Part shown: one piece after another, positions 6,728 to 36,077 of the stretch | Numbering within the stretch: position 1 is the stretch's first letter | Layout: the number at the start of each line of letters is the position of its first letter | Assembly: GCA_041748855.1 (NCBI GenBank) | Contig: JBGTCK010000058.1 | Location: 22,758 to 86,757, forward strand | Direction of reading: 5' to 3' | Length of the DNA stretch: 64,000 nucleotides | Source of the DNA: Acidimicrobiia bacterium | Lineage (GTDB): Bacteria > Actinomycetota > Acidimicrobiia > Spongiisociales > ZC4RG35 | The notes under the pieces: generated by a model | What the model saw: the letters and a program-made list of their open reading frames with translations, nothing else | Told to the model about the DNA's origin: nothing | The model's database searches: none | Translations under genes and position numbers: made by a program

Positions 6728-6802
6728 GATGCGTCGTCACCTCTCGATTAGGTTCCAACCCAGGTTACGCCGACGGGCGCAGATTCACTACCGTCGTCGC
6801 CC

Positions 6803-7267
6803 ATGAGTCACAAGGTTGCAATTGTTATGGGGTCGGGATCGGATAGACCGATTATGGAGAAGGGTTCACAGATGCTCGATAAGTTCGGGATCGAGCACGA
6901 AACACGGGTGCTCTCGGCGCACAAAACGCCGGACCAGGCGCTGGAGTTCGCCACCAACGCTGCAGACAACGGCTTCGAGGTGATCATCGCCGGGGCCGGA
7001 AAGGCGGCGCACCTGGCGGGAGTAATGGCCGCCAAATCGTTGCTGCCAGTGATTGGGGTCCCGATCAACGCCTCGCTCGACGGGATGGACGCTCTGCTTG
7101 CCACCGTCCAGATGCCCACCGGGATCCCGGTGGCGACCGTCGCCATCGACGCCGCCAACAACGCGGCGCTGCTTGCGGTCGCCATCCTCGCCATCAACGA
7201 CGACGAACTCCGCCAGAAACTGGCCGACTATCGAAGCGACCTCGCCGAGAAGACACTGGCCGGCTAG
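6803..7267 (+). CDS. purE: N5-carboxyaminoimidazole ribonucleotide mutase (PurE)
   Basis: 154 aa with the motifs VAIVMGSGSD and AGKAAHLAGVMAA. There is no purK next to it. Confidence 0.94.
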   Translation: MSHKVAIVMGSGSDRPIMEKGSQMLDKFGIEHETRVLSAHKTPDQALEFATNAADNGFEVIIAGAGKAAHLAGVMAAKSLLPVIGVPINASLDGMDALLATVQMPTGIPVATVAIDAANNAALLAVAILAINDDELRQKLADYRSDLAEKTLAG

Positions 7268-10983: not shown

Positions 10984-12078
10984 TCAGTAATCGATTGATC
11001 TCACCGTTGGGGAAGTGATATTCCCTTCGAGCAACCAGAGGTTTCCCCACTTGTCGAACGTGATCGCACTCGGAAGATTGAACTCTCCCGGAACTTCATC
11101 ACAATCACCCGTCGCGATGTCACAGGCATGAATAGCGCCACCGATCGACAATGCCGGCACGAAAGCCGCCAACCAGCTGCCCCTGTCATACTCGACCACG
11201 TACAGCTTCCCATCGGGGCCGAACTCGACATCGATCACGGATGTGAGCCCGTCGAGGAAGAGACTGCAGTCCACTGAAGGGCACACCACGTTTCGTGCTC
11301 CGGGTTCGATCCGCCATACCCGAGAAAGGCCAATAGGAAGGCTGCCCTCTGCGGTGGCTCCCGTCAGTTCCCCGACGTAGTAGGCACGATCAGGTCCGAT
11401 GGCAACCGATGTCGGGACAGGCTGGACGTAACAAGGAATGGAACCAGTTTCGGTCTCTGCTTCCCACCTGACCAGCCAGTCTCCATTCTGATCAACTGGC
11501 GGTGTGAAGATGGCCACCCAATCGACAGATCCGTTGACCCTCCCCGATAGCAGCGTGTTTCCGGCGGCATCAGCGATCAGCGCAGTGCTGGGTGACAACG
11601 CGGCCACGTGATATGGGTTGTTCTGCGGACCAGCGCTGAAGCCATCGATCGCCTCGCACCGCTGGTCCTTCCACATGGGCCCCTCGAAGGCATCAGGATC
11701 GCTGTTCCGCTCGAACGCCCCCAGATCGGCAACCATTCGAGCCGAGCCTGGAGAGACACGCCACAAAGCGCCGTCCATTGCCAGATCGGTGCTGGCGGTG
11801 GCGACAAATGCGCTGCCTCGCCCAAACGCGGCCAAACCGTTGATGGGTGTGGTGGAGCCGACCTCGACGAGGTCGTTGACCGCACCACGACGGATCTCTT
11901 TGATCGTGAAGTTCTCGCCCACGAGGATGCTCCCATCCGGGGCTGCGGCAATGTCGAATACTGCCGGTCCGAACTCGTACGGCCCTTCGCCGTTGTCGCC
12001 GGGCAATCCAGCTCCGGCGGACAGCATCGTCGACAACACCATCGCCAGGGCCGTCAGTAGGGTCAATAATCGTCTCAT
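10984..12078 (-). CDS. Secreted beta-propeller protein (ScyD/ScyE-family-like)
   Basis: 364 aa with a signal peptide (MRRLLTLLTALAMVLSTMLSAGAG). Repeated ...PDGS..V/..G.L.. blade-like segments end in ITFDKWGNLWLLEG. The family assignment is from memory of ScyD/ScyE-annotated actinobacterial proteins. Confidence 0.6.
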   Translation of the reverse strand: MRRLLTLLTALAMVLSTMLSAGAGLPGDNGEGPYEFGPAVFDIAAAPDGSILVGENFTIKEIRRGAVNDLVEVGSTTPINGLAAFGRGSAFVATASTDLAMDGALWRVSPGSARMVADLGAFERNSDPDAFEGPMWKDQRCEAIDGFSAGPQNNPYHVAALSPSTALIADAAGNTLLSGRVNGSVDWVAIFTPPVDQNGDWLVRWEAETETGSIPCYVQPVPTSVAIGPDRAYYVGELTGATAEGSLPIGLSRVWRIEPGARNVVCPSVDCSLFLDGLTSVIDVEFGPDGKLYVVEYDRGSWLAAFVPALSIGGAIHACDIATGDCDEVPGEFNLPSAITFDKWGNLWLLEGNITSPTVRSIDY

Positions 12079-12129
12079 TTCTCTCCCTTCCTTCCTTCTC
12101 GTGTCTGTCTTCGAATGACGCCAGACCGA

Positions 12130-12161
12130 AACGTAAGGAAGACCCCTAAACGATCTCTGAA
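12130..12161 (-). promoter_or_regulatory. Candidate SARP-dependent promoter: TTCAGAG-N4-TTTAGGG-N8-TACGTT
   Basis: The minus strand reads TTCAGAGatcgTTTAGGGgtcttcctTACGTT. That is two heptamers at 11-bp period with the proximal one 8 bp from a TANNNT hexamer, ~50 nt upstream of the 12078 start. The same layout occurs at 17050..17081. Confidence 0.55.
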
Positions 12162-12182
12162 CTGATCACGATCTGATCGCCG

Positions 12183-15100
12183 TCAGACGTTGAGAGAGCC
12201 GATGAGACGGAGTAACCCTCTGGCCTGTATTCGTTGCGAATCGGCCCGGGCAGATTCCATCTCGGCCAGGGCAGTATCACGGTCGCCCCGGTGCGACAAG
12301 GCTTCGGCAAGGCGAACCCGGCCGTACAGCTGGAAGTAGATGTAGTCGGCACGGTCCGTCGCCTCTCGCCACAGCCCGGGGTCGGGGTCGGTGACTCTAG
12401 AAAGCTCGGCGCGGGCGAACGCGAGGTGTGTCCCCTGTGTCTCGATGCCCAGGGACCCATCCGAAGGAGGGGGGAAGTTCAAGAGAAGGGCTTCCATCTC
12501 GGAAAATGTGGTCACGGCGTGGCCGATGTGTGCCTCTCTTTTAGATCCATCCGAGAGCAGCGCGGCGTTGACCTCTGCCCTGACGAGGGGATTGAGAACC
12601 CCAAGCTTCTTCGCTTCCTCCGACGGGTCCACCCGAACCGCCTGGTATGTCCGGGCATGGGCACGAACGGCCTCCACATCGCCCGCGTCGGCAGCTATGT
12701 CGGCAAGCAACGGGTAGTAGTCGTGGTACCAGCGGGGGTTGACCCCTATCTCATCTATCTCACTCATGGCCCGGGAGGCCTCTTCGAGGTCTCCTCTCAT
12801 CCAGCAGAGAGTCCCGTGGGTCATGAGATACCAAATACGGTCATAGCCCTCCATTCGGCCTTCCCGCAAGAGCCGGTTTGCTTCTTCAGCTTTGGCCCAC
12901 TCCCCGCTCTGCATGTACACATACGGAAACCAAGCCACAATTTGGCCCCATTGCTCCGGCCTCTGTTCGAGTGGAAATCGATCCATCAGCTCTTCGAGCA
13001 GACGCCGCGGCATCTCTCGGCGCATCTTCGGGTGCAGGGGGAGGATGTCGAACGTGAAATGGTAGGCCGCAATGGTGAGCTCAGGATCATCGAGCTTCAG
13101 GGCCTCATCCCGCGCATTCGACAGGACGGTGAGAGCCTCCTCGATCTCACCGTTCCAACCCAAAACGTGTCCGAGACAGATGTCGGCACGTATTCTTGCC
13201 GCAGCCTCGCCGGTGGCCTGTGCTACCGACACTGCCGATCGCGCCAGAGGGACAGCCTCTCGTGGATCTTGATCTACGAGCAGTAGGTGAAGATTGGCAA
13301 ATCTGGAGAGAACGGCCGCCTTTTGGGCAGATGGACCCGAAGTCGACGCTACCTCGTTCGCCGCCGAGGCCTCGGCAAACGCAGTGTCGCTCATGTTGAG
13401 ATGGAAGAAGACTTGGGCTAAGCGGGCCCGCAGTTCGGCTTCTCGCACGGAACTATCGCCGACGGCTTGAAGGGCGAGCTGGAGGACAGTCCTGGCTCCA
13501 GTGATGTTGCCTGTCATCAACCAATGCCATGCCAGAGCACTGGCGACCATCGATGTAGAAGCGCTGTCCGCTTCCTCCTGTGCCGTCTCTAGAGCAAGTA
13601 GCAGGTTGTCGCTTTCGAGCCGTAGCCGGGTCCGAAGCTCGTATCGGCCAGTGCCGTAGACCTTGTTCTCGGCCTCGGTGGCGAACTGCACGCACCACTC
13701 GAGGTGGCGACGCAGAGCATCGGCGATCTGCCCACGATCTATGAGGCGCTGGAGAGCGAATTCACGTACGGGCTCGAGGAGCCTGAACCGGGCGGGCTCC
13801 GAGCGATGTCGCGCTATCAGGGACTTGGCGACGAGGCTCTCGAGCACATCGAGGACAGAGTCCAGCGATCGGGATTCGTGCGCGGCTATGTGTTGCACCA
13901 TCGTGATGTCAAACCCACCCCGGAACACGGAGACTCGCTCGAACAGCGTCCTTTCTTCGTCGTCGAGCAAGTCGTAACTCCACCCGATCGCTGCACTCAG
14001 AGTCTGATGTCGAGGAAGGTCTGCGGCGTGGCTGGAGGCCAGGGAGAGAATTCGTTCGGTCAGATGCTGCCCAATCAACTCCAGACCCAGTGTCTTGACC
14101 TTGGATGCAACCAGCTCGATAGCTAGCGGTATGCCGTCGAGACGACGGCAAACCGCTGCCACCGATTCCGTGGTGCCATCGAGGTCGAACCGGGGATCGA
14201 CTAGCGCTGCTCGATCCGCGAAGAGAAGCACCGCGTCATATTCCCGGACCCCCAAGGGAGTCACACCTTCAGGCGGTATGGCGAGCGGGGGCACATCGAA
14301 TAGGGCCTCACCCGGCACATGCAGCGGCTCGCGGCTGGTCGCCAGAACCGTGACGCCCTCGCCCGCGGTGACCAGTGCTCGGGCGACAGAGGCGGCCCCT
14401 TCTCGAAGGTGCTCGCAGTTGTCCAACACCAGGAGGGCCTTGTCTCTGCGCAGAGAGTCGACCAGGCCCTGTAGAGGATCTTCGGTGTGAGGTTTCAGAC
14501 CGATGGCTGCGGCCACCTCGATAGGGATGAGCTCGGGGTCACGCAGGTCGGCCAGGTTCACGAACCAACACCCATCGGGGAACTCATTCAGCTGATTCAT
14601 AGAAGCACTCAGAGCGAGCCGGGTCTTGCCGGAGCCACCGACACCGGTAAGGGTCACGAGTCGGTGTGCACCGAGCAGCTTCTCGACAATTCTCAGCTCC
14701 TCTTCGCGACCGATGAATGCGGTGAGCTCGACGGGGAGGTTGTGCCTGGTGGATGTGAGCTCTTCACTGTGGAGCAGGATCTTTTCTTCGAGGCGGCGGA
14801 GTGCCGGTCCTGGCTGCAGCCCGATGCGGGCCAACACGGCGTTGTACTCCTGGTAGGCGTGCAGTGCCTCGACGTGACGACCCAGCCGGTACCGGGCTGT
14901 CATCAGATACTCCCAGAGTCGTTCCCGCAATGGGTTATCCACCACCAGCCTCTCCAATTCGGGTACAGCCTCCGATGGCCTTCCCAATCTGAGCAGTGCC
15001 TCGGCCCACATCTCCCACAAGTCGAGATAGAGCTCTTCGAGACGGACGATCTCGGCCCGCGCGAACTCATCATCGACCAGCTCGGTATAGGGCTGCCCCC

Positions 15101-15530
15101 GCCACATCCCAAGACCGATCGAGCTGGAAGCCAGGGCCTGCTCCCAATCACCTACCTCCACTGCCTCCCGCGCCCGTTGTGCCGCTTCGACGAACTGGGG
15201 CGCATCGAGGGCCCACGTCTCCACGTCCAGCCGGTAGCCGTAGCCTTCGGTGACGATCGCGTCGGCGCCCAGTATCCGCCTCAAAGCCGAGACATGAGTC
15301 TGCAGTGCGGCCCTCGCACTATCAGGCGGGCTTTCCCCCCAGAACATATCGATCAGGCGTTCCGTCCCGATCCGTCGGTTTGGTTCGAGAGCGAGGATCG
15401 AGAGCAGCCGAAGATGTGAGACCCGGGTGGGCTGCGATAGCCCCTCACCCATCACCCGAAGGTCGCCCAAAACCTCAATCCGCAGACCCGCCTCACCGGT
15501 CATGGACCCGATTCTTACAGGTGATCCCAT
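12183..15530 (-). CDS. AfsR/SARP-family regulator (OmpR-type wHTH + BTAD + NB-ARC ATPase + TPR)
   Basis: 1115 aa. The N-terminus is LRIEVLGDLRV...SHLRLLSILALEPNRRI, followed by a BTAD-like helical region, the P-loop GVGGSGKTRLA and a long TPR-like C-terminus. Confidence 0.9.
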   Translation of the reverse strand: MGSPVRIGSMTGEAGLRIEVLGDLRVMGEGLSQPTRVSHLRLLSILALEPNRRIGTERLIDMFWGESPPDSARAALQTHVSALRRILGADAIVTEGYGYRLDVETWALDAPQFVEAAQRAREAVEVGDWEQALASSSIGLGMWRGQPYTELVDDEFARAEIVRLEELYLDLWEMWAEALLRLGRPSEAVPELERLVVDNPLRERLWEYLMTARYRLGRHVEALHAYQEYNAVLARIGLQPGPALRRLEEKILLHSEELTSTRHNLPVELTAFIGREEELRIVEKLLGAHRLVTLTGVGGSGKTRLALSASMNQLNEFPDGCWFVNLADLRDPELIPIEVAAAIGLKPHTEDPLQGLVDSLRRDKALLVLDNCEHLREGAASVARALVTAGEGVTVLATSREPLHVPGEALFDVPPLAIPPEGVTPLGVREYDAVLLFADRAALVDPRFDLDGTTESVAAVCRRLDGIPLAIELVASKVKTLGLELIGQHLTERILSLASSHAADLPRHQTLSAAIGWSYDLLDDEERTLFERVSVFRGGFDITMVQHIAAHESRSLDSVLDVLESLVAKSLIARHRSEPARFRLLEPVREFALQRLIDRGQIADALRRHLEWCVQFATEAENKVYGTGRYELRTRLRLESDNLLLALETAQEEADSASTSMVASALAWHWLMTGNITGARTVLQLALQAVGDSSVREAELRARLAQVFFHLNMSDTAFAEASAANEVASTSGPSAQKAAVLSRFANLHLLLVDQDPREAVPLARSAVSVAQATGEAAARIRADICLGHVLGWNGEIEEALTVLSNARDEALKLDDPELTIAAYHFTFDILPLHPKMRREMPRRLLEELMDRFPLEQRPEQWGQIVAWFPYVYMQSGEWAKAEEANRLLREGRMEGYDRIWYLMTHGTLCWMRGDLEEASRAMSEIDEIGVNPRWYHDYYPLLADIAADAGDVEAVRAHARTYQAVRVDPSEEAKKLGVLNPLVRAEVNAALLSDGSKREAHIGHAVTTFSEMEALLLNFPPPSDGSLGIETQGTHLAFARAELSRVTDPDPGLWREATDRADYIYFQLYGRVRLAEALSHRGDRDTALAEMESARADSQRIQARGLLRLIGSLNV

Positions 15531-15641: not shown

Positions 15642-17024
15642 CTAAGTGAGGACGACTGCCTGATTTGCCTGGCTGAACAGGTTGTTTGGGTCGTATCTCG
15701 CTTTGATCTCTTGAAGCCGCTGTAGGTTGGGCCCGTAGGTGGCGTTCACCCGGTCGTTGTCGTCCTTGTCGACATAGTTGGAATAGACACCCGACGCCGC
15801 ATGGGGTCGCATCGTCTCATGAAGGGAGCGGGTCCATTCGATGGCAGCCAAATCATCGGTCGGGCTCTCCCAACCAGAAGAGATGCCGAGGCCGAACTTC
15901 ACACCTCGATGAGGGAATGCGGTCACCGAAGGATCCACCCGCGACACTGCCCCTCCCAGAGGCTCCAGGAACACGTTCGAATAGATACCGGGAAGTGAGT
16001 CGACGCCTGCGACCAGAGTGCCAATTGCCTCGTCAGTGAGCTCGTTGAGATACTGCGCTTTCCAGTAATAGCGGCCACCATCCGGGGCACCGGCGTCGAA
16101 GCTCGACTGCAGGTCTGCGTACGGGATCGGAGCGAGGACGGACAGCATCGACGATCCGAACTCGGCGAGTGGGGCCAGTTCGGCCTCCCCTTCTTCGAGC
16201 GAGCCCGCATGACAGGCAACCAACGCCAGACACGTAGCCCCATGCTGAGACACGGGGAATGGTTCGACCGGTGGAGTGTTTATGAACAACGCAAAGCAGC
16301 CGACCGCATCTGAGGCATCGGCCATGAAGTCCCGATAGAAGGTGAGTGCTCGCCTCGACTGATCCATCGAATAGAAGGCCTGTGCGTGCATCACATCCGG
16401 CCCGACCTCGCTAAGCCGGAACTCGAATGCCGTGACCACACCGAAGTTGCCGCCCCCACCGCGCAGTGCCCAGAAGAGATCCGGGTGTTGCTTCTCGGTC
16501 GCATACACCGTGCGACCATCGGCGAGTACCACCTCGGCTCCCACCAGCTGGTCGATCGTGAGTCCGATGCTTCGAGCCAGATAGCCGATCCCGCCGCCGA
16601 GTGTGAGCCCGCCCACGCCGGTTCGAGAGTCCACTCCCCCGGTCACCGCCAGGCCAAACGCCTGGGTCTCGTGATCGACAACTCCCCAGGTTGCACCGGC
16701 GCCGACACGGGCGGTCTTGGTCTGCTGATCGACCTGCACCGACTTCATCAACGAGAGGTCGATCATCAAGGATCCATCCCGGACCGCTTTCCCGGCTACG
16801 CCATGACCGCCGCCCTTCACCGTGATGTCCAGACCCTCTTTTCTTGCCAGGTCGAGGGCAGCTATCACGTCTGCGGTCCCCTCACAACGAGCGATGAGGA
16901 CGGGGTACTGATCAACCATCCCGTTCCACACTCGACGGGCCATGTCGTAGCCGTCGTCCTCGGATGAGAGGAGGGACCCACGGAATGACCCGCCTGCATC
17001 TCGGATTGACTGTGTGTCGAGCAT
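15642..17024 (-). CDS. FAD-linked oxidase (PCMH-type FAD-binding domain + C-terminal BBE domain)
   Basis: 460 aa. It contains ...VKGGGHGVAGKAV...GGGIGYL... and a C-terminal YSNYVDKDD...YGPNLQRLQEIKARYDPNNLF (berberine-bridge-like tail). Confidence 0.85.
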   Translation of the reverse strand: MLDTQSIRDAGGSFRGSLLSSEDDGYDMARRVWNGMVDQYPVLIARCEGTADVIAALDLARKEGLDITVKGGGHGVAGKAVRDGSLMIDLSLMKSVQVDQQTKTARVGAGATWGVVDHETQAFGLAVTGGVDSRTGVGGLTLGGGIGYLARSIGLTIDQLVGAEVVLADGRTVYATEKQHPDLFWALRGGGGNFGVVTAFEFRLSEVGPDVMHAQAFYSMDQSRRALTFYRDFMADASDAVGCFALFINTPPVEPFPVSQHGATCLALVACHAGSLEEGEAELAPLAEFGSSMLSVLAPIPYADLQSSFDAGAPDGGRYYWKAQYLNELTDEAIGTLVAGVDSLPGIYSNVFLEPLGGAVSRVDPSVTAFPHRGVKFGLGISSGWESPTDDLAAIEWTRSLHETMRPHAASGVYSNYVDKDDNDRVNATYGPNLQRLQEIKARYDPNNLFSQANQAVVLT

Positions 17025-17049
17025 TCTTTCTCCTTGGTATGAGGAGTTG

Positions 17050-17081
17050 AACCTACGTGAGGCCTCTAAACGGCCTCTGAA
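17050..17081 (-). promoter_or_regulatory. Candidate SARP-dependent promoter: TTCAGAG-N4-TTTAGAG-N8-TAGGTT
   Basis: The minus strand reads TTCAGAGgccgTTTAGAGgcctcacgTAGGTT, followed 17 nt later by AAGGAGAAAGA-ATG of the FAD oxidase gene. Confidence 0.55.
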
Positions 17082-17130
17082 CCCGGGTATCGAGGGGTTA
17101 TGACCGCGCGGGAGTAACCCGGTGCCAGAT

Positions 17131-17436
17131 TCAGTCGGCGATCAGGCGAAAGCGGTCGAATCCCTTGGGCTTCGGGCGGCTCGGCTCCGATGGGATACGG
17201 GCATGGGAGCGTCGGTGGCTGTCGCTGCGCATGTAGGAGCGGAAGCTCGCCTCGTCGTCCCACCACGACACCATCAGGAATCGTCCGTCGTCCCGCTGGT
17301 CCTGCCACACTTCCAAATGGCGGAACCCCGGCCAATCGTCGACTTCGCCCAATCGGTTCCGAAATGCTTCAACGAGAGTGTCCGATGCATTCTCCTCGCT
17401 GGAGATCTCCGAGACTGCCACAAAAGGCTCACTCAT
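17131..17436 (-). CDS. Antibiotic-biosynthesis-monooxygenase (ABM) domain protein
   Basis: The ORF 17131..17619 is trimmed to MSEPFVAVSEI... (101 aa). This is a ferredoxin-like ABM pattern (...FRHLEVWQDQRDDGRFLMVSWWDDEASFRSYMRSDSHRRSH). The ATG overlaps the upstream stop by 8 nt (ATGAGTGA). Confidence 0.7.
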   Translation of the reverse strand: MSEPFVAVSEISSEENASDTLVEAFRNRLGEVDDWPGFRHLEVWQDQRDDGRFLMVSWWDDEASFRSYMRSDSHRRSHARIPSEPSRPKPKGFDRFRLIAD

Positions 17437-17788
17437 CGTCACTACTCCCGGGAACGGAAGCGAGGAGGTCGAGGAGCACATTCCGTGCGGGTGGTTCGAG
17501 ATGAGCCTCGCCGATTGCGCCCATATAAGTCCAGGCATCGTCGAGCCACTTTCGGGGAAACCCTCGATCCCGGAACAGGTCATAGCAGTAGTCAACGTGG
17601 CTTCTGAAGGCGTCCTCACCGTCGGCTACGGCCTGAAAGTGCAGCGTGAAGTCATTCAGCGTGTGCTGCCGCCCCTTCTCGCCCAGGTCCCAGAGGTCGG
17701 GCTGATCGGCATACATGGTCTCAGTCGCGAGAAAGGCCAGATGGGGGGCGGCCTCCCTGATGACAACGTCAGGATTCCTGGTGGTCAT
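17429..17788 (-). CDS. Hypothetical 119-aa protein, no family recognised
   Basis: The composition looks all-helical. The start overlaps the histidine kinase stop (ATGA), and the stop overlaps the ABM start. Confidence 0.55.
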   Translation of the reverse strand: MTTRNPDVVIREAAPHLAFLATETMYADQPDLWDLGEKGRQHTLNDFTLHFQAVADGEDAFRSHVDYCYDLFRDRGFPRKWLDDAWTYMGAIGEAHLEPPARNVLLDLLASVPGSSDDE

Positions 17789-19506
17789 GCCGCCAGGTGG
17801 TGACGCTCGAGCGCATCTAGTGCGGCTTCAGGTCGGGTGCCGAGGTTCGTGCCAGGCAGCCCATCCACCGGGGCGAAATCTTCGGCGAACAGGCGCCCAC
17901 CGAATCCAAGGAAGAGACCCTTCTCCAGATGCCCGTTGAGCGCGGCGCCCAGCTCGCGCAGGCCGTTCAGGTCGCGAGCTGTGGAAAGCGACAGGAGCAG
18001 GGCATCGGCACCTGTAGTCTCCACGGTTTCGACGAGCGAGTCGACCGGCACTCCTCTTCCGATGTAGATCACCCGATAGCCGGCCTCGGCGACCAGCAGT
18101 GCCAGCGAGACGAGGCCCGTTTCGTGCTCATTGCCCGGGGCCGAGGCACATATCACGGTTTCTTCTCGAGTCGGCTGGTAGCGAGCCAGGAGCATCATCA
18201 GCCAGGAGTGCACAACCGAGGACGCGTGATGTTCCTGTGCAACGCTGATCTCACCTCGCTGCCAACGGTCACCCACTTCGTACATGACGGGCTGAACGAT
18301 CTCCTCGAGCACGCGTTTGGGAGGCTGGTCGAACGACAACCGATTGACACGATGGCGAGCATCCTCGGTCTGATAAGCAAGGAGCTCGTCAATCAGCTCG
18401 ATCCGCTCACGTTCGAAGTCGATGGGCTTCTGTCCAGAGGCCCCACCCGATTTGAGCAAGGTGATCCGGAAGATTGCCCCGGCGTCAGTTGGCACGTATT
18501 CGAGGATGCCTCCCATGTCTGATACCAATGAGCGGCCTATCGCCAACCCGATTCCCGTACTCGCGATTGAAGCACCAGCCGTTCCAGTGCTGAATGGTTG
18601 AAATACCCTCTCGATATCGCCAGGATCGATGCCCGACCCGTTGTCCCTGACGTCGATAATGGCTTGATCGTCCACTTCGTGAAGACGGATTCCTATTTCC
18701 GGCCCGCCGTATTTGACTGCATTCTGGAGGAGTCCTCTCACCACCTGCAAGAGTCTGCGGGTGTCGGCAACCACGACAGAGGGCGTGAGGCTGCCTTCGA
18801 TCGTCACGACCGCGTCGGGAAAGCTCTGCGCGAGCTTGATTATCGCTCCGGTCAATTCGGTTCCTGCGACTCCGGCGCTCTCGACCTGAAGTCGACCAGA
18901 TGCGGTGAGACCCACGGTGAGAAGATCATCAATCAAACTATCGAGCTCGGTCGCCTGGTCGACGATTATCGTGAGGAACTCTGCCAACTCCTCCTTATCG
19001 TTCTGCTCCAGGGCGATCTCGCCGAAGCCCCGAATCGAGGTCACGGGTTGCCGGAGCTCGTGAACCACGCCGCCGATCATCTCGAACGCTTGCGACTTCC
19101 CCTTCAACGCCTCCTCTAGAAGGACGCTGTAACGGTATTGACCGGTAAGGTCGAGGGCGAAGATAACCCAATGATCTGCATCGAGGCGACGCACCTCGAC
19201 TCTCCAAACGGTCACTGAATCATCGAGCTCCCATTTTCGGCCGTAGGCCAGTCCCTGGATACGTAACGGGAAGGTCTCCGAGGAGCCGGGGGCCATGTCG
19301 AGCAGCGTCTCCAACCATCCCTCGAAGTGGGCTCCGGGGAACACCTCGGCCGGGCTCTTGGCGATCATGTCATCCTGACTGCTCAGCTCGCAAGCCAGGC
19401 TGCTGGCCATCGTGGTGACCAACTGGTCGGAGCGTCGTTCGACCACGATGATCGCCAGAGGCGCATCTTCAACGGCCTTGGACAGCAGGCTTTCGTAGGA
19501 GGTCAA
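17785..19506 (-). CDS. Sensor histidine kinase with a C-terminal CarH-type cobalamin-binding module
   Basis: 573 aa with a TTG start after AAGGA. It has a PAS-like N-terminus, the H-box VVHELRQPVTSIRGF, the N-box LLQNAVKYG and G-boxes DNGSGI and STGIGLAIG. These are followed by GDRWQRGEISVAQEHH (Wx9EH) and APGNEHETG...RVIYIGRGVP...ADALLLS (a B12 Rossmann domain). Confidence 0.85.
   Translation of the reverse strand: MTSYESLLSKAVEDAPLAIIVVERRSDQLVTTMASSLACELSSQDDMIAKSPAEVFPGAHFEGWLETLLDMAPGSSETFPLRIQGLAYGRKWELDDSVTVWRVEVRRLDADHWVIFALDLTGQYRYSVLLEEALKGKSQAFEMIGGVVHELRQPVTSIRGFGEIALEQNDKEELAEFLTIIVDQATELDSLIDDLLTVGLTASGRLQVESAGVAGTELTGAIIKLAQSFPDAVVTIEGSLTPSVVVADTRRLLQVVRGLLQNAVKYGGPEIGIRLHEVDDQAIIDVRDNGSGIDPGDIERVFQPFSTGTAGASIASTGIGLAIGRSLVSDMGGILEYVPTDAGAIFRITLLKSGGASGQKPIDFERERIELIDELLAYQTEDARHRVNRLSFDQPPKRVLEEIVQPVMYEVGDRWQRGEISVAQEHHASSVVHSWLMMLLARYQPTREETVICASAPGNEHETGLVSLALLVAEAGYRVIYIGRGVPVDSLVETVETTGADALLLSLSTARDLNGLRELGAALNGHLEKGLFLGFGGRLFAEDFAPVDGLPGTNLGTRPEAALDALERHHLAA
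17788..18324 (-). other. B12-binding_2 helical bundle + B12-binding Rossmann module of the kinase (aa ~395-573)
   Basis: By my residue count the key residues are W415, E425, H426 and H461 (NEH461ETG). Confidence 0.7.
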
Positions 19507-19698
19507 GAACGATCCTTGGAGTAGGTCAAGATGATACTCCTATCGGCATGAATGCATCTTTGCTACAGGGCCTTCGGTGTTCCGGACTTCAACGCATGGT
19601 GTTCGAGTGTCGCCCTCATCCGAGCTTCTCAAACTTCCTTTGGTAACGACCGACTCGGCTCTAGCGAATGTGTCAAACCTAGCCGAATTCGTAGGCGG

Positions 19699-20490
19699 CT
19701 AGTCGGGGAGGACTTCGCCGGTTTTGTCGGGGCGTTGTTTGTGGACCCGGCCTTCCACTCCGCGCAGCGGCGTGCCGGTGCCGTGGCCGTAACGCACCTG
19801 GGTCATCTCGGCGAGGATGGATACCGCTACTTCTTGGGGGCTTTCCGCGCCGATATCGAGGCCAACCGGTCCGTGGATTCGGGCGATGTCCTCGTCGCTG
19901 AAGCCCTTCTCCTGGAGACGCTCCACCCTGAGACCGTGGGTTCGCCTGCTTCCCATCGCCCCGATATATCGGACCGGGCTCTTCAGGGCCGCTTCGATGA
20001 CCGGGTCCTCGAGACGCTTCTCGTGGGAGAGGACGATCACCCAGGTGCGGCGGTCCAGCGTCAGCTGATCGAGGATCTCCTCGGGACGGCCCACCAGGAC
20101 CTTCGATTCGGGGAACCGATCGTCGGTGGCGAACATGGCACGGGAGTCGGCGACCGTGGCGCGGTAGCCCATCTGGGTGGCGAATGACGCCAGTGATTGG
20201 GCAACGTGAACCGCTCCGAAGATGACCATCTCCTGGGGCGGGGCCAGCGTCTCGACGAACACCTCGTGGCCGCCGTATTGCATGGTCCGGTGCTGCTCGT
20301 GCTCCATCAGCGTTAGGGCATCGGCGACCACGTCTTCGGCAATCTCGTCGGGGACAGAGCCGGCAACGACCTCGCCGTCGGAGTCCACAACTGCTTTCCC
20401 GCCGACTTCAGGCCCGGCGGTGATGGTGACGACCGACCCGTATACCTCGCGATCGAGCAGGTCCTGCACTGCGTGAAGCGCGGTCACCAT
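19699..20490 (-). CDS. XdhC-family maturation protein, C-terminal part (second XdhC_CoxI-like segment + Rossmann domain)
   Basis: 263 aa from [12 protein letters not shown]... It contains ...[14 protein letters not shown]...[11 protein letters not shown].... Its ATG overlaps the stop of the 102-aa XdhC N-domain ORF (ATGGTGA). Confidence 0.8.
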
Positions 20491-20792
20491 GGTTCGATGA
20501 ACACTTCGATGGTGCCACCGCAAGCCATCCCGACCTCGAATGCGTCCTCGTCGGCGATCCCGTAGGTCACCTTTTTCGGCTTTCCGGTCTCGATGACCTC
20601 CTGGGCGTGGAGGAAGACATCGTTCTCGACACATCCGCCGCTCACCGAGCCGGCCATGTCGCCTGCGTCGGAGACCATGAACTTGGAGCCTTCCGGGCGT
20701 GGCGCACTGCCATAAACCCGGATCACAGTGGCGACGGCAACCTTCTTGCCCTCGTCGGTCCAGGTCTTCCACGTTTCCATCTGGTTTCTCAT
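20484..20792 (-). CDS. XdhC-family protein, stand-alone N-terminal XdhC_CoxI domain
   Basis: 102 aa: ...[23 protein letters not shown]...GSVSGGCVE...[12 protein letters not shown]. The start overlaps the coxE stop. Confidence 0.8.
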
Positions 20793-21913
20793 GCTCTGAC
20801 TCCAGCTATCGAATCGAGTATCCGTACCACTCCCTGGAAGTCACTAACGCTAGCGGCGGGGAGCAGATGATCGACGTGGGGGAGCACTGCCTGCATGCCT
20901 CTGGTCAGCGGTTCATAGGTCTCCCGTGCGGCCAGCGGATTGAGCCAGATCACCTGATGCACCGAGCGCGACAGCCGGGCCATCTCAGTTCGGAGCAGTA
21001 CGGGGTCGCCGCAGTCCCAACCGTCGGAGAGGATGAGCAAGACGGGCCCGCCCCGGGCAAGTCTCCGGCTCCAGCGGCGGTTCCACTCGGCGAGAGCCTC
21101 GCCGATCTGGGTGCCTCCCGACCATCCGGTCACCCGGGCAGCGGCACTTTGCAGCGCCGTCTTCGTGTCTCGCCGTCGCATCTCTTCGGTGATCCGACTG
21201 AGGTGGGTGGAGAAGGTGAAGATCTCGACCTCGCGCAGCCGACGTTGGGCGGAATGGGCGAAGACGAGAAAGATGTCCGAGTAGGCCTCCATCGACCCGG
21301 AGATGTCAGCGATGATCACCAGAGGGCGTTGCTTGCGGGTGCGCTTCTTCCAGCTCATCAACATCATGTCGCCTTCGGGACCGATCGCTCGCCGCAGGGT
21401 GCGCCTCATATCAGGCCGCCTTCCATGATTCGACCTTGCCCAACGCCGGGTCCGGTAGTCGGTCGGGTGCCAGAGCATGGTCATGATCAACCGCCTCGCC
21501 TCTGCAAGATCGTCGTCGCTCAATTCGGCGAAGTCGCGCCGTGTGATCATCTCGACGGCCGAGGCACCGGAACGTTCGGCTGCACTGTCGAACTCCTCGG
21601 AGCCCACAGACCCGTGTAGCCCCAGCGCCGCTCCGCTCGAGGATTCGGTCTTGTCGGGGTTGCGTGACACCAGCATCGGCGGGGACAGCCTGTGGAAGAA
21701 GCGTTCGAACTCCTCTTCGAAGACCGGAATCTGCGCCGGGTCGGTGACCGTCAACGCCTGCAACGAGGCTCGGGCCTGTGACTTGCTGGCGATGTCGACC
21801 AACTGCAACGAACGGGCCATATCCGCGGTCTGGTCTGCCGTGACCGCAAGCCCCCGACCGCGCAGGGTGCCTGCGAACTGGCTCAATTGGTCGATGAGCG
21901 TTGCAGCACTCAT
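20789..21913 (-). CDS. coxE: VWA-domain CO dehydrogenase maturation protein (CoxE-like)
   Basis: 374 aa with a VWA MIDAS-type segment ([10 protein letters not shown]). It sits directly after the MoxR ATPase with a 4-nt overlap. Confidence 0.85.
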
Positions 21914-22788
21914 CCGACCAGGGATTCGACCCCCGCGCTCCTCACCAGGTCGATGTCGTCTTTGTACTTGAGAAACACGCCAAGTGTGGACTCGATGACG
22001 GGCACCGAGAGCTCGCCTGCTTGAAGCAGCCGGAGCGACTCCGCCCAGTCGAGTGACTCGGCAACACCGGGTGGCTTGAACAGGTCGACGTTGCGAAGGC
22101 GGCTCATCGCCTCGCTCACCGAGTCGGCGAGGGCTGCATTCAACTCGGGGACCTTGCGCTGGATGATTGCTGACTCCCGCTCGGGTGTCGGATAGTCGAT
22201 CCAGTGGTAGACACAGCGCCGCTTGAGGGCGTCGTGGATTTCACGGGTCCGGTTGGAGGTGAGCACGACGATCGGCGGCTCTTCTGCCTTAATGGTGCCA
22301 ATCTCGGGTATCGACACCTGGAAGTCGGACAGCAACTCGAGGAGAAACGCCTCGAACTCCTCGTCGGCCCGGTCGAGTTCGTCGATCAGCAATACCGGCC
22401 GGCTGCCGGCGGTGCTCGCTTCGATCGCCCGAAGGAGAGGGCGAGCGATCAAGTACTCCCGGCTCATGATGTCCTCGGGGGTGGCGTCGGAGCCTTTCCC
22501 GCTGGCTTCGAGAAGCCGGATGGCCATCATCTGTCGGGCATAGTCCCACTCGTAGAGGGCCTGGCCGACGTCGAGGCCTTCGTAACACTGCAACCTGATC
22601 AGCTCTGAACCTGACATCAGGGCGAGGACTTTGGCCACCTCGGTTTTACCGACACCGGCCTCCCCTTCGAGGAACAGCGGCCTCCCCAGCTGCACCGCGA
22701 TATGAATGGCGACCGTGAGGCTCTCATCACTGAAATAGTCGAACTCGTCGAGCTTTCCGGCGAGGTCTTCGACCGTGTTAGGAATCAC
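21910..22788 (-). CDS. coxD: MoxR-type AAA+ ATPase (CoxD-like)
   Basis: 292 aa with Walker A GEAGVGKT and Walker B VLLIDELDRA. Confidence 0.9.
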   Translation of the reverse strand: MIPNTVEDLAGKLDEFDYFSDESLTVAIHIAVQLGRPLFLEGEAGVGKTEVAKVLALMSGSELIRLQCYEGLDVGQALYEWDYARQMMAIRLLEASGKGSDATPEDIMSREYLIARPLLRAIEASTAGSRPVLLIDELDRADEEFEAFLLELLSDFQVSIPEIGTIKAEEPPIVVLTSNRTREIHDALKRRCVYHWIDYPTPERESAIIQRKVPELNAALADSVSEAMSRLRNVDLFKPPGVAESLDWAESLRLLQAGELSVPVIESTLGVFLKYKDDIDLVRSAGVESLVG

Positions 22789-22797
22789 AGATCAAGC

Positions 22798-22935
22798 CTA
22801 AATCGCCTCAGTGGCAAGAAACGAAGTGGGGTCCTTCTCGAAGGCCGTCTTGCAGCCCGGGGCGCAGAAGTAGTAGGTCTCGCCTTCGTGCTCGCTGATC
22901 CAGCGGGCGTTGGAGATGTCGACCTCCATCTCACA
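22798..22935 (-). other. TRASH/YHS domain segment of the XdhC fusion
   Basis: By my count the first Cys is at residue 299. The motif C-X22-C-X3-C plus YYFC is typical of YHS/TRASH domains. Confidence 0.7.
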
Positions 22936-23829
22936 CACCGGGTCGATAGCGGTGTGCGGTGGCTCGGTTGGAGCGATCCCTCCGTTCATCTTCCCCGCTG
23001 CGTGCATCGAGACGAGTTCTGCGATGATGGCCACACCGATCTCGCGGTGCTGGATGGCACCGAGGTCGATCCCCGCCGGTGCCGTGATCCTGGCGAGCTG
23101 TTCGTCGGAGACACCACGGTCTTTGAGATAACCGAGGACCGTCTCCGCACGGCGCTTCGACGCCACCAGGCCGATGTACCCGGCGGCTGTCGCCAGGGCC
23201 GCCTCGAGGGCGGGCTCGTCGTAATGGCCCTGGGTGGCGACCACAATCGCATCGCCCGACCCGACATCAGCAGGCATCTTCAAACTGGCGACTACCGCAG
23301 AGGCTCCGGGATGATCGGAAGGGTCGCCGCCGTCGTCGACAACAGTGACCTGCCAGCCCAGCGCAGACGCCAGGTTGGTGAGAGTCTTCACGGCCGGGGA
23401 TCTGCCCACAGAAACGACGTGTTGTCTCGGGAGCATGGGTTCCAGATACACCTCCAGTGCGCCTTCGCTGGTGCAAGAAATCGGCACCGACACCACGTCG
23501 GGCCGGTCGAGTTCCCGGATGTCGTCGGGTGTGCCCAGGAAGAGGAGCCGGGGTTGGCCGTCGGCCATAGCCTCTCGTGCCTCCCTGATCACCACAGGTT
23601 CGGCACAGGCGCCGCCGATCCAACCGGTGACCTTCCCGGCTGCGTCGATGATCGCCGAAGACCCCCGCTTGCCCGAGGACGGACCTCGGGCCCAGACGAC
23701 CGTAGCGACGAGAAACGGCTGGTGGCGGCTGCTCATTTCAGCGGCCAGCTCCAGCAGTTCGGGCTTCATCAGTGGTCCGTCGCTGAAATAGGGCGAGGGT
23801 GTCTCCGAGTCATCGGCGTCATCTGGCAA
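22798..23829 (-). CDS. XdhC-family protein fused to a C-terminal TRASH/YHS metal-binding domain
   Basis: 343 aa. The XdhC segments are FLVATVVWARGPSSGKRGS...GGACAEP and the Rossmann segment is VVSVGRSPAV...YIGLVASKRR. The tail is DPVCEMEVDISNARWISEHEGETYYFCAPGCKTAFEKDP (C-X22-C-X3-C). An alternative start is M21, at 23769. Confidence 0.8.
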   Translation of the reverse strand: MPDDADDSETPSPYFSDGPLMKPELLELAAEMSSRHQPFLVATVVWARGPSSGKRGSSAIIDAAGKVTGWIGGACAEPVVIREAREAMADGQPRLLFLGTPDDIRELDRPDVVSVPISCTSEGALEVYLEPMLPRQHVVSVGRSPAVKTLTNLASALGWQVTVVDDGGDPSDHPGASAVVASLKMPADVGSGDAIVVATQGHYDEPALEAALATAAGYIGLVASKRRAETVLGYLKDRGVSDEQLARITAPAGIDLGAIQHREIGVAIIAELVSMHAAGKMNGGIAPTEPPHTAIDPVCEMEVDISNARWISEHEGETYYFCAPGCKTAFEKDPTSFLATEAI

Positions 23830-23938
23830 GAAGAAAAGCGCAGTCGCAGCCGGAAGCTGCGGCGAGCATTTTCGACGCCGCCAGGGATGTCGCGGGCCGA
23901 AGAGACCCCGTCTGTATTTCTGCGACGGGCCACCAGCG

Positions 23939-26326
23939 CTATCCCTGTCCGGACTCTTTCATCGCATCCCAGACCCGATCGGCCGACACCGGCATGTCGA
24001 TGTTGGTGATCCCGAGGTGTGACAGCGCGTCGATGACTGCGTTGACAAAGGCCGCCGGCGAGCCCACCGTGGCCGATTCGCCGACTCCCTTGGCGCCAAT
24101 CGGGTGGTGCGGTGACGGGGTCACCGTCGCACCGAGCTCGAAGCGGGGGGTCTCCCAGGCCGTGGGCACCAGGTAGTCCATGAACGTTGAGCCAATGCAG
24201 TTGCCGGCATCGTCGAACGATATGTGCTGCATCGACGACATCGCGTAACCCTCGGCTAGCCCTCCGTGGATCTGGCCCGCGACGATCATCGGGTTGATCC
24301 GCACCCCGCAGTCGTCAACAGCGACCATCCTGCGCACCTTCCACTGACCGGTCCCCGGGTCGACGTCGACGACAACGATGTAGCTGCCGAACGGATAGGT
24401 CATGTTGGGCGGGTCGTAGTAGTTGACACCTTCGAGGCCGGGCTCGATCCCTTCAGGCACATTGGTATACGCAGCGAAGGCAATGTCCTGGATGGTCACC
24501 GAGCTCTCCGGGTCGCCCTTGACGTAGAACTTGCCGACCTCCCACTCGAGATCGTCCTCCGACGCCTCGAGGAGATGGGCAGCGATCTTCTTTGCCTTGG
24601 CCCTGATGCTCCGTGAGATCATCGCGGTGGCGGCACCGGCGACAGGAGTGCTCCTGGAGGCATAGGTCCCCAACCCGTATGGCGTGTTGTCGGTGTCTCC
24701 CTCCATCACCTTGATGTCGGTGGATGGGATCCCGAGCTCTTCGGCGACGATCTGGGCGAACGTCGTCTCATGGCCCTGACCCTGGGACTTGACCCCGAGT
24801 TTGAGGATTGCCTTGCCCGTGGGGTGGATCCTCAGCTCGGCGGAGTCGAACATTCGCAGACCGAGGATGTCGAAGTCGTCACCGTGTCCGGCGCCGACCA
24901 CTTCGGTGAACGAGGCGATGCCGATGCCGACCAGTTTTCCCTCCTTGAGCGCTTCCTCCTTCTCCTTCTGGATGTCGTCGTAGCCGACCATGTCCATCGC
25001 CAGTTTCAACGCTGTCTCGTAGTCACCTGAGTCGTAGACGAATCCCGTTGGCGAGAGGTAGGGGAACTGGTCCTTCTTGATGAAGTTGTTCATCCGGAAC
25101 TCGGCCGGGTCGATACCCAGCTCGTAAGCGGCATTCTGGACGAGCCGTTCGATCAAATACGACGCCTCCGTAACCCGGAACGAGCACCGGTAGGCAACAC
25201 CTCCCGGTGCCTTGTTGGTGTACGCGCCTTTGGTCGAGATATGCGCAACCGGGTAGTCGTAGGAGCCGGTGACGATGTGAAACAGGCCAGCTTTGAATTT
25301 GGTGGGTTGGGCATCGGAGAAGAACGCACCTTGATCGGAGAGCATCTCCACCTTGAGCCCGAGGATCTTGCCCTCGTTGGTCACCGCCAGCTCGCCGTGC
25401 ATGTGATAGTCGCGGCCGAAACCTGTCGAAATCAGGTTCTCGGTGCGGGTCTCGACCCATTTCACCGGCTGTCCGATCACCAGCGAGGCCGCGGTCGCCA
25501 CCACATACCCTGGGTAGACCGGCACCTTGTTCCCGAACCCGCCCCCGAGGTCGGGAGAGATTATCCTGATGTTTTGCTCGGGGAGCCCGGCGACCAGAGC
25601 GAACACCGTCCGGTGGGCGTGGGGGGCCTGCGACGTCAGGTAGAGCGTCGCCTGGCCCGTTGCCGAGTTGACGTCGGCGACGATCCCACAGGTCTCCAAC
25701 GGGGCGGGGTGCGAACGCGGGTAGAAGGTGTCGAGTTTGACCACCCTGTCGGCGGTAGCGAAGGCGGCGTCGGTAGCGGCCTTGTCACCCGATTCCCATT
25801 CGTAGACCAGGTTGGAGTTCTGCCCCTCCTTATCGTCGCGGATGATCGGAGCGTCGGCTTCCAGCGAGCGCTGCGGGGTGACGATCGGTTCGAGGTCTTC
25901 GTACTCGACCTGGATCCGGTCGGCCGCGTCCTGGGCGATGTAGCGATCGGTGGCGATGACCGCCGCTATCTCCTGTCCCTGGAAACGCACCTTGTCGGTC
26001 GCGAGCACCGCCTGGGTGTCGCCGCTCATCGTCGGCATCCAGGCGAGGTTGTAGCCGGCTAGCAACTCGCCGGTCACCACCGCTATCACACCTTCGACCG
26101 CCTCAGCTTCAGAGGTGTCGATGGAGATGATCCGGGCGTGGGCCAGGGGGCTGCGGTGGATCGCCATGTGGAGCATCCCGGGAAGGATGATGTCATCGAC
26201 GTAGTTACCCCTTCCCTCGAGGAATCTCGCATCCTCGACGCGTTTGCGGCTGTGGCCGAGGCCACCTACTTCGAATGTGGTCTTCGGGGAGTCCTGGGTT
26301 GTTGGGGTGTCCTGGGTCGTTGTCAT
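23939..26326 (-). CDS. coxL: Aerobic CO dehydrogenase large (molybdopterin) subunit, form I
   Basis: The ORF 23939..26404 is trimmed to MTTTQDTP..., so that the ATG overlaps the coxS stop (ATGA). The active-site loop GGVAYRCSFRV is present, coded at about 25074..25094. Confidence 0.92.
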   Translation of the reverse strand: MTTTQDTPTTQDSPKTTFEVGGLGHSRKRVEDARFLEGRGNYVDDIILPGMLHMAIHRSPLAHARIISIDTSEAEAVEGVIAVVTGELLAGYNLAWMPTMSGDTQAVLATDKVRFQGQEIAAVIATDRYIAQDAADRIQVEYEDLEPIVTPQRSLEADAPIIRDDKEGQNSNLVYEWESGDKAATDAAFATADRVVKLDTFYPRSHPAPLETCGIVADVNSATGQATLYLTSQAPHAHRTVFALVAGLPEQNIRIISPDLGGGFGNKVPVYPGYVVATAASLVIGQPVKWVETRTENLISTGFGRDYHMHGELAVTNEGKILGLKVEMLSDQGAFFSDAQPTKFKAGLFHIVTGSYDYPVAHISTKGAYTNKAPGGVAYRCSFRVTEASYLIERLVQNAAYELGIDPAEFRMNNFIKKDQFPYLSPTGFVYDSGDYETALKLAMDMVGYDDIQKEKEEALKEGKLVGIGIASFTEVVGAGHGDDFDILGLRMFDSAELRIHPTGKAILKLGVKSQGQGHETTFAQIVAEELGIPSTDIKVMEGDTDNTPYGLGTYASRSTPVAGAATAMISRSIRAKAKKIAAHLLEASEDDLEWEVGKFYVKGDPESSVTIQDIAFAAYTNVPEGIEPGLEGVNYYDPPNMTYPFGSYIVVVDVDPGTGQWKVRRMVAVDDCGVRINPMIVAGQIHGGLAEGYAMSSMQHISFDDAGNCIGSTFMDYLVPTAWETPRFELGATVTPSPHHPIGAKGVGESATVGSPAAFVNAVIDALSHLGITNIDMPVSADRVWDAMKESGQG

Positions 26327-26799
26327 GCTGACACCTCTTCGTTGTTCATGGCGGCTGCGGTCTGGATCGAGTTGACGATGTTCATGTATCCGGTGCAACG
26401 GCACAGGTTTCCCGATATTGCCCAGCGGATCTCCTCATCCGTGGGGTCCGGGTTTTCTTCGAGGAATGCGGAGCCGACGAGCATCATCGCCGGTGTGCAG
26501 AACCCGCACTGGAGCCCGTGCTCCTCGTGGAATGCCTTCTGCATGTTGGACAGCTCGCCATTCTGCTTGAGGCCCTCCACCGTGGTGATGCTGCGCCCGT
26601 CCGCCTGAACGGCGAACATGGTGCACGACTTCACGGGAGTGCCTTCGACGAGGATCGTGCACACCCCGCAGCTGGTGGTGTCACAACCGATGTGGGTACC
26701 GGTGAGGCCGAGTGTCGTGCGGATGAAGTCGACCAGAAGCAGGCGGGGCTCGACCTCTCCAGACCGGTTAGTGCCGTTGATGCTGACGGTTACCTTCAT
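26323..26799 (-). CDS. coxS: CO dehydrogenase small subunit (2x [2Fe-2S])
   Basis: 158 aa with CDTTSCGVCT and CGFCTPAM...CRCTGY cysteine clusters. Confidence 0.95.
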   Translation of the reverse strand: MKVTVSINGTNRSGEVEPRLLLVDFIRTTLGLTGTHIGCDTTSCGVCTILVEGTPVKSCTMFAVQADGRSITTVEGLKQNGELSNMQKAFHEEHGLQCGFCTPAMMLVGSAFLEENPDPTDEEIRWAISGNLCRCTGYMNIVNSIQTAAAMNNEEVSA

Positions 26800-29500: not shown

Positions 29501-29628
29501 AGGAACTGGAAGTTAGGTCGGATCGAGGACACATGCTGTCCGTTAATCGCATGCCGGAGCTTTCATCGTGTCAAGTCCGAAGACCATCTGCGGTGTGTGG
29601 CGGTCTAGACGTGCCATCATCCCCAACT

Positions 29629-34986: not shown

Positions 34987-35026
34987 CGGGCAGCACGGTA
35001 GTTCCTGGAAGCCTGAATTCGCATCG

Positions 35027-35947: not shown

Positions 35948-36077
35948 GAGTGGGTAGTTCGGGCCGCGCCAGCGTAGCGTGGGTGAGATCGGCCCCCCCT
36001 CCCCCTCGCTTCGCTCGGGTACTCCCCCCGTTCGGCTCCGCCTCCGGGGGGAGAGTTCGTGGTGCTTGGGGGAGGAT

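Follow-up and report, generated by a model that had tools for sequence, protein, structure and literature searches.

A three-gene cassette of about 2.4 kb lies on the reverse strand of the 64-kb window (the whole stretch of DNA that was analysed, from contig JBGTCK010000058.1 of an Acidimicrobiia bacterium), and we think it fairly probable that it encodes a photocobilin that is split over two genes and wired to a histidine kinase. In such a system, adenosylcobalamin (AdoCbl), with or without a bilin, would gate autophosphorylation of the kinase in response to green and possibly red light. The known photocobilins, SasPcob and AbDPcob (Zhang et al., Nat Commun 2024, PMC10979010; PDB 8J2W/8J2X/8J2Y), pair a cobalamin-binding domain (CBD) with a globin. 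The genes of the cassette, in the order of transcription, are as follows.

17785 to 19506, reverse strand: gene 1, HK-CBD, histidine kinase with a C-terminal CBD, 573 aa (from the list of open reading frames [ORFs], Pfam and an orthologue alignment)
17429 to 17788, reverse strand: gene 2, standalone photoglobin, 119 aa, with T43-x-x-D46 (T-L-N-D) (from AlphaFold2 [AF2], Foldseek, hhalign and a profile search)
17131 to 17436, reverse strand: gene 3, ABM-domain protein, 101 aa, IsdG/HmoB-like (Pfam ABM, E value of 1e-14)

The argument draws on what the sequences show: which domains are present, how well their motifs are kept, that gene 2 is homologous to globins, and that the operon is conserved. 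A sequence-only reading of this DNA had described a CarH-type module on a kinase. Module and kinase are both present, but that account was incomplete, as it missed the three-gene operon. With a photoglobin and an ABM protein encoded behind the kinase in one operon, the system resembles the photocobilins, which combine B12 with a bilin, more closely than it does CarH alone.

The HK-CBD gene starts with a TTG codon, with AAGGA 6 nt upstream. Its orthologues (41 to 87% identity) share the start position and keep the residues that precede an alternative start at Met33, and this backs the long form of the protein. A PAS-like fold is followed by four Pfam domains, all of which exceed their gathering scores.

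19147 to 19506, reverse strand: N-terminal PAS-like domain, aa 1 to 120; five-strand sheet with flanking helices in the AF2 model, predicted local distance difference test score (pLDDT) of about 80 to 92
18916 to 19083, reverse strand: HisKA, the dimerization and histidine phosphotransfer (DHp) domain, aa 142 to 197, with phospho-acceptor H149 in HELRQP (Pfam, E value of 7e-13)
18457 to 18765, reverse strand: HATPase_c, aa 248 to 350, with N box N262, G1 box DNGSGI and G2 box STGIGLAIG (Pfam, E value of 9e-21)
18196 to 18396, reverse strand: B12-binding_2 (PF02607), four-helix bundle, aa 371 to 437, with G412-x-x-W415 and E425-H426 (Pfam, E value of 6e-15)
17890 to 18159, reverse strand: B12-binding (PF02310), Rossmann domain, aa 450 to 539, with G458-x-x-H461 and G483-x-x-x-P487 (Pfam, E value of 2e-10)

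These matches answer the profile search that had been proposed for the protein, and the complete transmitter described by the sequence-only reading is there in every detail. The motifs VVHELRQP (147 to 154, H149), LLQNAVKYG (259 to 267), DNGSGI (288 to 293) and STGIGLAIG (316 to 324), along with the C-terminal GDRWQRGEISVAQEHH (412 to 427; W415, Q416, E425 and H426) and APGNEHETG (456 to 464, H461), all stand at the residues it gave. HK-CBD has everything by which a HisKA kinase is recognized, namely an H box with its phospho-acceptor His, an N box, and both G1 and G2 boxes. In an alignment of 15 orthologues, H149, E150, Q153, P154, N262, D288, G290, G292 and G318 to L321 are invariant. The AF2 model (mean pLDDT of 78.7) runs from the PAS-like domain at residues 1 to 120 through a long DHp hairpin, the catalytic and ATP-binding (CA) domain and a short linker (about 352 to 363) to the CBD. 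Foldseek places LOV-histidine kinase structures (8a52 and 4gcz, the latter being YF1) at the top of its matches, over about 385 columns that cover PAS, DHp and CA. The earlier label of PAS kinase is compatible with this predicted fold, but in Pfam residues 1 to 137 give no PAS match even at an E value of ≤10.

Within the H box, H-E-L-R-Q-P, the position four residues after the His is occupied by Gln in 15/15 orthologues (Q153, window positions 19048 to 19050). In most HisKA kinases this residue is Thr or Asn and is linked to phosphatase activity, which may be altered or absent in the HK-CBD kinase family. In two sets of relatives, P0022 with P0184 and P0038 with P0186, the kinase part (345 to 446 aa, HisKA and HATPase_c only) and the CBD part (215 to 243 aa) are called as separate proteins, with 51 to 86% identity to the HK-CBD of the window; the longest contig for both P0038 and P0186 is 18,618 nt. 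These split calls represent either real gene fission or a frameshift or gene-calling artefact.

The identification of the C-terminal module as a CarH-type CBD is supported by several sequence comparisons. The last 210 aa of HK-CBD align to Thermus thermophilus CarH (5c8a) with an E value of 1e-15 in a phmmer search of the PDB, in which MetH and corrinoid proteins are weaker matches, and the NCBIfam CarH model is the top non-kinase match of the protein. Outside the HK-CBD family, the CBD is closest to MerR-CBD regulators of the CarH/LitR type (35 to 40% identity), which carry the JGI annotation "light-induced transcriptional regulator." The claim that the Trp, Glu and His residues and the loop His superpose on those of CarH held in the phmmer alignment: W415, E425, H426 and H461 share columns with CarH W131, E141, H142 and H177, and Q416 stands opposite H132. 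H461 is the predicted lower axial His of the cobalamin. The spaced motif W-x9-E-H is weak evidence taken as a bare regular expression, since it occurs twice in the 86,144 residues of six-frame ORFs in the window, and the profile matches carry the weight.

Light-responsive CBDs have a signature, GxxW, EH, GxxH and GxxxP, that sets them apart from other CBDs (Scrutton, Leys and colleagues, PMC11796333). This signature is complete in HK-CBD (G412/W415, E425/H426, G458/H461 and G483/P487) and invariant in the 15 orthologues. The sequence-only reading had pointed out that Gln, rather than the His of CarH, follows the Trp and that the chemistry might differ as a result. The Gln is confirmed as Q416, and the family has Q, L, M or A at this position and never His. 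The concern is answered, however, by SasPcob, AbDPcob and CtMerR, which have Gln, Tyr and Arg, respectively, at the equivalent position and all respond to light without the CarH bis-His state (PMC11796333); SasPcob is light-active with the very same residue. A second invariant His, H427 (window positions 18226 to 18228), follows the E-H pair in the family (Q-E-H-H-A), where CarH has Leu. Because HK-CBD has no equivalent of His132, H427 could serve as an alternative upper ligand in the light state.

The conservation of these residues also bears on whether the domain still binds cobalamin. It might have degenerated or been repurposed, for example to bind heme in the way of a SCHIC domain or to do no more than dimerise; SCHIC domains are a precedent for such repurposing, and some fusions of a globin with a CBD match AppA_SCHIC weakly. 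HK-CBD itself yields no SCHIC match, however, and all of the cobalamin-contacting signature residues, H461 included, are invariant at 41 to 87% overall identity. We regard the loss of cobalamin binding as very improbable.

The 119-aa protein encoded by the second gene has no Pfam match, Phycobilisome included, and no NCBIfam match, and against PDB sequences both phmmer and a narrow profile of 14 sequences (A1) yielded only noise. Its homology to globins emerged only when the whole set of representative proteins was searched and the profile was widened. The protein has 15 close homologues, and its profile, run against 1.84 billion representative proteins, reaches proteins of about 355 aa that consist of a globin, B12-binding_2 and B12-binding. 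The globin part of several of these fusions matches Pfam Phycobilisome, and hhalign aligns the 119-aa family with the globin domain of the fusions at a probability of 99.5% (E value of 4e-23). A profile built from 39 sequences (A5) matches allophycocyanin (E value of 1e-8), SasPcob (8j2w/8j2x, 1e-7) and 8j2y (4e-5) in the PDB. AF2 predicts a five-helix bundle (pLDDT of 91.5) whose Foldseek neighbours are allophycocyanin, phycocyanin, the biliverdin-binding smURFP and the photocobilins 8J2W/X/Y, with TM scores of 0.63 to 0.76, those of the photocobilins being about 0.65. From the modelled bundle and its structural neighbours, the fused homologues with their hhalign match, and the broad profile, the protein is a standalone photoglobin, a phycobiliprotein-like globin as Schneider et al. 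(2021, PMC8717448) use the term.

Across the 39 globin sequences, D46 is the sole invariant column. In the profile alignment it lines up with the Asp to which the pyrrole nitrogens are bound, and T43 lines up with the allophycocyanin Cys to which the bilin is attached. The equation of D46 with Asp270 of SasPcob assumes an offset of +6 between chain index and author numbering, inferred from Trp61. In SasPcob, too, Thr takes the place of that Cys, and biliverdin is held without a covalent bond (PMC10979010). Standalone photoglobins almost always adjoin B12-domain genes, and their neighbours include ABM monooxygenases and heme oxygenases (PMC8717448). Rockwell et al. (2023, PMC10151467) describe globins of the same lineage as going together, in general, with heme oxygenase and with proteins that bind B12, and show that biliverdin is bound by those of the BBAG-2 group.

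A partner of this kind speaks to what the CBD senses. The domain might be a chemical sensor of cobalamin availability or form, with the kinase reporting B12 status and light having no physiological role. B12-binding and B12-binding_2 domains do occur in non-photochemical proteins such as MetH and corrinoid proteins, and the carriers are uncultured Acidimicrobiia known from metagenomes of the soil or sediment type, where exposure to light is uncertain. We nevertheless consider a B12-status sensor improbable, given that the W-x9-E-H adenosyl pocket and the full light signature are invariant in the family, that the obligate partner is a phycobiliprotein-like globin, and that the nearest relatives of the CBD are annotated as light-induced MerR-type regulators.

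The three genes are tightly packed. The stop codon of HK-CBD overlaps the start codon of the globin gene (ATGA), and the end of the globin gene overlaps the ATG of the ABM gene by 8 nt; the kinase and globin genes are, to judge from this arrangement, translationally coupled. HK-CBD and globin genes are adjacent in all seven of the distinct loci examined (the window, L002, L003, L005, L019, L020 and L021), with kinase identities of 42 to 53%, and the ABM gene follows the globin gene in six of the seven. The genes that flank the cassette vary from locus to locus, which marks the cassette as a conserved unit. The pair of ABM and globin genes also occurs, in reversed order, in the distant relatives L022 and L023. 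At L023 (77 to 2727), overlapping ABM (first) and photoglobin genes adjoin a gene for a 320-aa photocobilin-type protein with B12-binding_2, B12-binding and a Phycobilisome-like globin.

The HK-CBD family is rare and was found only in metagenome-assembled genomes (MAGs) of Acidimicrobiia. About 22 protein clusters among 5.8 billion have the four-domain architecture at >40% identity, and orthologues are carried by 2 of 185,579 species-representative genomes, both of them Acidimicrobiia MAGs. Proteins with an ice-binding domain are encoded near the cassette in two Acidimicrobiia MAGs (L003, 1504 to 2226; L020, 2923 to 3924), which hints that some carriers come from cold, possibly light-exposed habitats.

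The ABM protein has the ferredoxin-like fold of its domain family and is closest to heme-degrading enzymes; its best PDB matches are Bacillus subtilis HmoB (E value of 5e-9), IsdI, MhuD and a Thermus protein of unknown function. Residues S9, W59 and H78 are invariant in eight orthologues, and W59 and H78 represent the Trp and the His of the IsdG triad. The recurrence of the ABM-globin pair at six of the seven loci and in distant relatives, together with the literature that ties such globins to heme oxygenase and ABM genes, argues for a functional link between the ABM protein and the globin. That the protein supplies the bilin, as a non-canonical heme-degrading enzyme, is a possibility to which we would give somewhat less than an even chance.

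What we infer about cofactor binding, the light response, docking in trans, the direction of kinase regulation and the function of the ABM protein can be put together as follows. The first gene would encode an apparently cytoplasmic kinase composed of a PAS-like domain, a DHp domain with H149, an ATPase domain, a short linker and a CarH-type CBD. In the dark, AdoCbl would sit in the CBD with H461 as its lower axial ligand and with W415, E425 and H426 packed on the adenosyl group, and the two CBDs of the kinase dimer would pair, as they do in CarH and the photocobilins. The 119-aa photoglobin would dock in trans on the CBD, in the manner of the fused globin of the photocobilins, and would carry a non-covalent bilin on D46. 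In photocobilin crystals the fused globin is in contact with the two subdomains of the CBD and shields the corrin ring at its edge (PMC10979010). Green light would break the Co-C bond directly, and red light possibly via the bilin, a mode of action that has been demonstrated for photocobilins (PMC10979010, PMC11796333). The conformation or pairing of the CBDs would then change, altering the geometry of the adjacent ATPase and DHp domains, and this would in turn affect both the autophosphorylation of H149 and the transfer of the phosphoryl group to a response regulator whose gene lies elsewhere. Less firmly, the ABM protein would make the bilin from heme, and the PAS-like domain may contribute a second input. 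A fuller version, in which the cassette is a self-contained, split dual-chromophore receptor whose Ser-for-Asn ABM protein makes the bilin, whose globin docks in trans, and in which green and red light both gate phosphotransfer, we hold only tentatively and think rather doubtful.

Several observations weigh against a light-gated two-component system of this design. A receiver hidden Markov model (HMM), which detects 34 REC-containing proteins as a control, finds no receiver domain in any six-frame ORF of the 64-kb window, in agreement with the earlier statement that the window holds no response regulator gene, and no receiver gene lies within 6 to 10 kb in six related loci; the HK-CBD kinase is an orphan. 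To our knowledge, a sensor C-terminal to the ATPase domain is unusual and has no structural precedent for control of DHp and CA. The ABM gene is absent from locus L021. In the ABM protein the catalytic Asn of the IsdG triad is replaced by the invariant Ser9, and its only NCBIfam matches are heme-oxygenase models at 18 to 31 bits, compared with cut-offs of 115 to 156. The Asn is essential in IsdG and MhuD, so the protein misses one defining feature of IsdG-type enzymes. The column of Ser9 is that of HmoB N70, where the deposited 4fvc sequence carries Ala. Finally, the globin of AbPcob has a low bilin occupancy (PMC10979010), and for that reason a role other than chromophore binding is possible for the globin of the cassette.

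Some of these points would equally suit a simpler CarH-like green-light kinase that senses through the CBD only, with the globin and the ABM protein sensing heme, O2 or redox, or with the globin as a downstream partner or output. In CarH the CBD alone suffices for light sensing; the small amount of biliverdin bound by AbPcob and the missing Asn of the ABM protein fit as well, and with no response regulator gene close by, the output could be a small partner protein. What makes this unlikely in our view is the globin itself: D46, which aligns with SasPcob Asp270, is the only column kept by 39 diverse members, the protein has homologues that are joined to a CBD in one polypeptide, and the genes are translationally coupled. 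We therefore keep to the split photocobilin that acts on the kinase.

Candidates for the missing receiver were also sought among small proteins encoded upstream of related cassettes (L002, L019 and L022); they are not receivers, and they have no counterpart in the window. Among the related loci, only L023 holds a receiver, and it is degenerate. This 141-aa protein is encoded near a HATPase_c protein, and its acceptor-site region reads LVLEH, with no Asp.

At the level of regulation, no cobalamin riboswitch or other Rfam family was found in the window at gathering thresholds. A promoter consensus scan of positions 16900 to 19800 gave 0 promoter-like sites, and in a terminator consensus scan of the same interval the terminator-like sites fall inside coding sequence. 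No carotenoid, B12 or light-related genes were seen among the remaining window genes examined, and the rest of the window is of a housekeeping kind, with purine biosynthesis, a CO-dehydrogenase-type cluster and an extracytoplasmic function (ECF) sigma factor. Downstream of the cassette, at a distance of 106 nt, lies a gene for a BBE/FAD-linked oxidase (15642 to 17024, reverse strand), and beside it a large regulator.

12183 to 15530: STAND/TPR regulator with BTAD, NB-ARC/AAA and TPR, beside the BBE oxidase

Locus L006 encodes a homologue of the BBE oxidase (12032 to 13459, 38% identity) about 3.6 kb from its cassette, also beside a large regulator, in that case with AAA_16, TPR and GerE. The regulator was considered as a conserved partner of the cassette and rejected, as the proteins of the window and of L006 are not homologous.

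Directly upstream of the cassette is a CO-dehydrogenase/xanthine-dehydrogenase-type cluster (19699 to 27674, reverse strand) that includes a [2Fe-2S] subunit, an FAD subunit and two XdhC genes, one of which (22798 to 23829) encodes a C-terminal YHS metal-binding domain. From reading the sequence by eye, we take the product of 23939 to 26404 to be the large molybdopterin subunit, and a 292-aa ORF (21910 to 22788) and a 374-aa ORF (20789 to 21913) to resemble MoxR-type AAA and VWA proteins. Purine-biosynthesis genes are scattered through the window (2915 to 7267, 29533 to 30930, 34937 to 39108 and 46372 to 48767), from which we conclude that the region is core chromosome. They encode adenylosuccinate synthetase, GAR synthetase, AIR carboxylase, adenylosuccinate lyase, SAICAR synthetase and FGAM synthase subunits, as well as amidophosphoribosyltransferase-like and AIR synthase-like proteins. 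An ECF-type sigma factor with a C-terminal DUF6596 extension (44973 to 46208, reverse strand) has no evident link to the cassette, and together with a SARP-like protein it makes up the only sigma factors or regulators among the ORFs scanned.

Experiments have demonstrated B12 photoreception in transcription factors (of the CarH/LitR and AerR types) and, from 2024 on, in photocobilins with a diguanylate cyclase under their control. The sequence-only reading had supposed that no B12-kinase fusion of this kind was characterised, and we found no characterised natural CBD-kinase in the full-text literature searched, whose coverage leaves many subscription-journal papers outside. The novelty was nonetheless over-rated. 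A computational catalogue of 2021 already lists photoglobins that occur with B12 domains in two-component operons, among them kinase fusions and loci with ABM neighbours, and remarks that none had been studied (PMC8717448). The photocobilin papers of 2024 (including PMC10979010) report tests of the standalone form and of the form fused to a cyclase, and kinases are not mentioned in them. The architecture class was thus already predicted in 2021, and a kinase output of B12 photoreception is so far only a prediction. The cassette is a compact candidate for asking whether AdoCbl photochemistry can gate a two-component kinase, whether a photoglobin can act in trans, whether an IsdG-type protein can supply the chromophore, and how a sensor behind the ATPase domain controls autophosphorylation. 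If the proposal is true, HK-CBD would be without precedent both as a natural two-component kinase that light regulates through B12 and as a photosensor that acts from behind the ATPase domain, it might serve as a green/red-responsive kinase part for optogenetics, and uncultured, non-phototrophic Acidimicrobiia would sense light.

Among known systems, light-regulated HisKA kinases of the PAS/LOV and bacteriophytochrome types (YF1, 4GCZ; Pseudomonas aeruginosa BphP, 9EUT) share the kinase class with HK-CBD, and its predicted PAS-DHp-CA part superposes on theirs. Their chromophore domain, however, is N-terminal and signals through a coiled coil to the DHp domain, whereas the predicted photosensor of HK-CBD follows the ATPase domain. 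With the photoglobins and BBAG-2 globins (PMC8717448, PMC10151467), the second gene shares its state as a standalone globin beside a B12-domain gene, a signalling context, an oxygenase neighbour and a motif of the (C/S/T)-x-x-D type. It differs in having T-L-N-D where photoglobins have C-x-Q-D and BBAG-2 members have RGMC, and the oxygenase neighbour is an IsdG-like ABM protein rather than a canonical PF01126 heme oxygenase.

The CarH/LitR proteins (T. thermophilus CarH, PDB 5C8A/5C8D) have a homologous CBD, and the equivalents of W131, E141, H142 and H177 are all kept in HK-CBD. HK-CBD, in contrast, gives no match to a MerR DNA-binding domain, and its N-terminal 350 aa are instead PAS-like, HisKA and HATPase_c; His132 is replaced by Gln, Leu, Met or Ala, and the output would be phosphorylation rather than release from DNA. 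The photocobilins have in common with the cassette a CarH-type CBD with W-x9-E-H and the lower axial His, with Gln after the Trp in the case of SasPcob, and a five-helix phycobiliprotein-like globin that keeps the bilin-binding Asp and has Thr in place of the attachment Cys. AbDPcob also comes from Acidimicrobiia. They differ from it in that their globin is a fused domain rather than the product of a separate coupled gene, in that their output is a diguanylate cyclase or none rather than a HisKA-type kinase N-terminal to the CBD, and in that the cassette includes an IsdG-like ABM gene; the photocobilins are known from experiment and the cassette from sequence. HK-CBD is best read as lying outside CarH/LitR, for want of a MerR domain and of an equivalent of His132, and as not strictly a photocobilin, since its globin is unfused, but by analogy it would work most like one.

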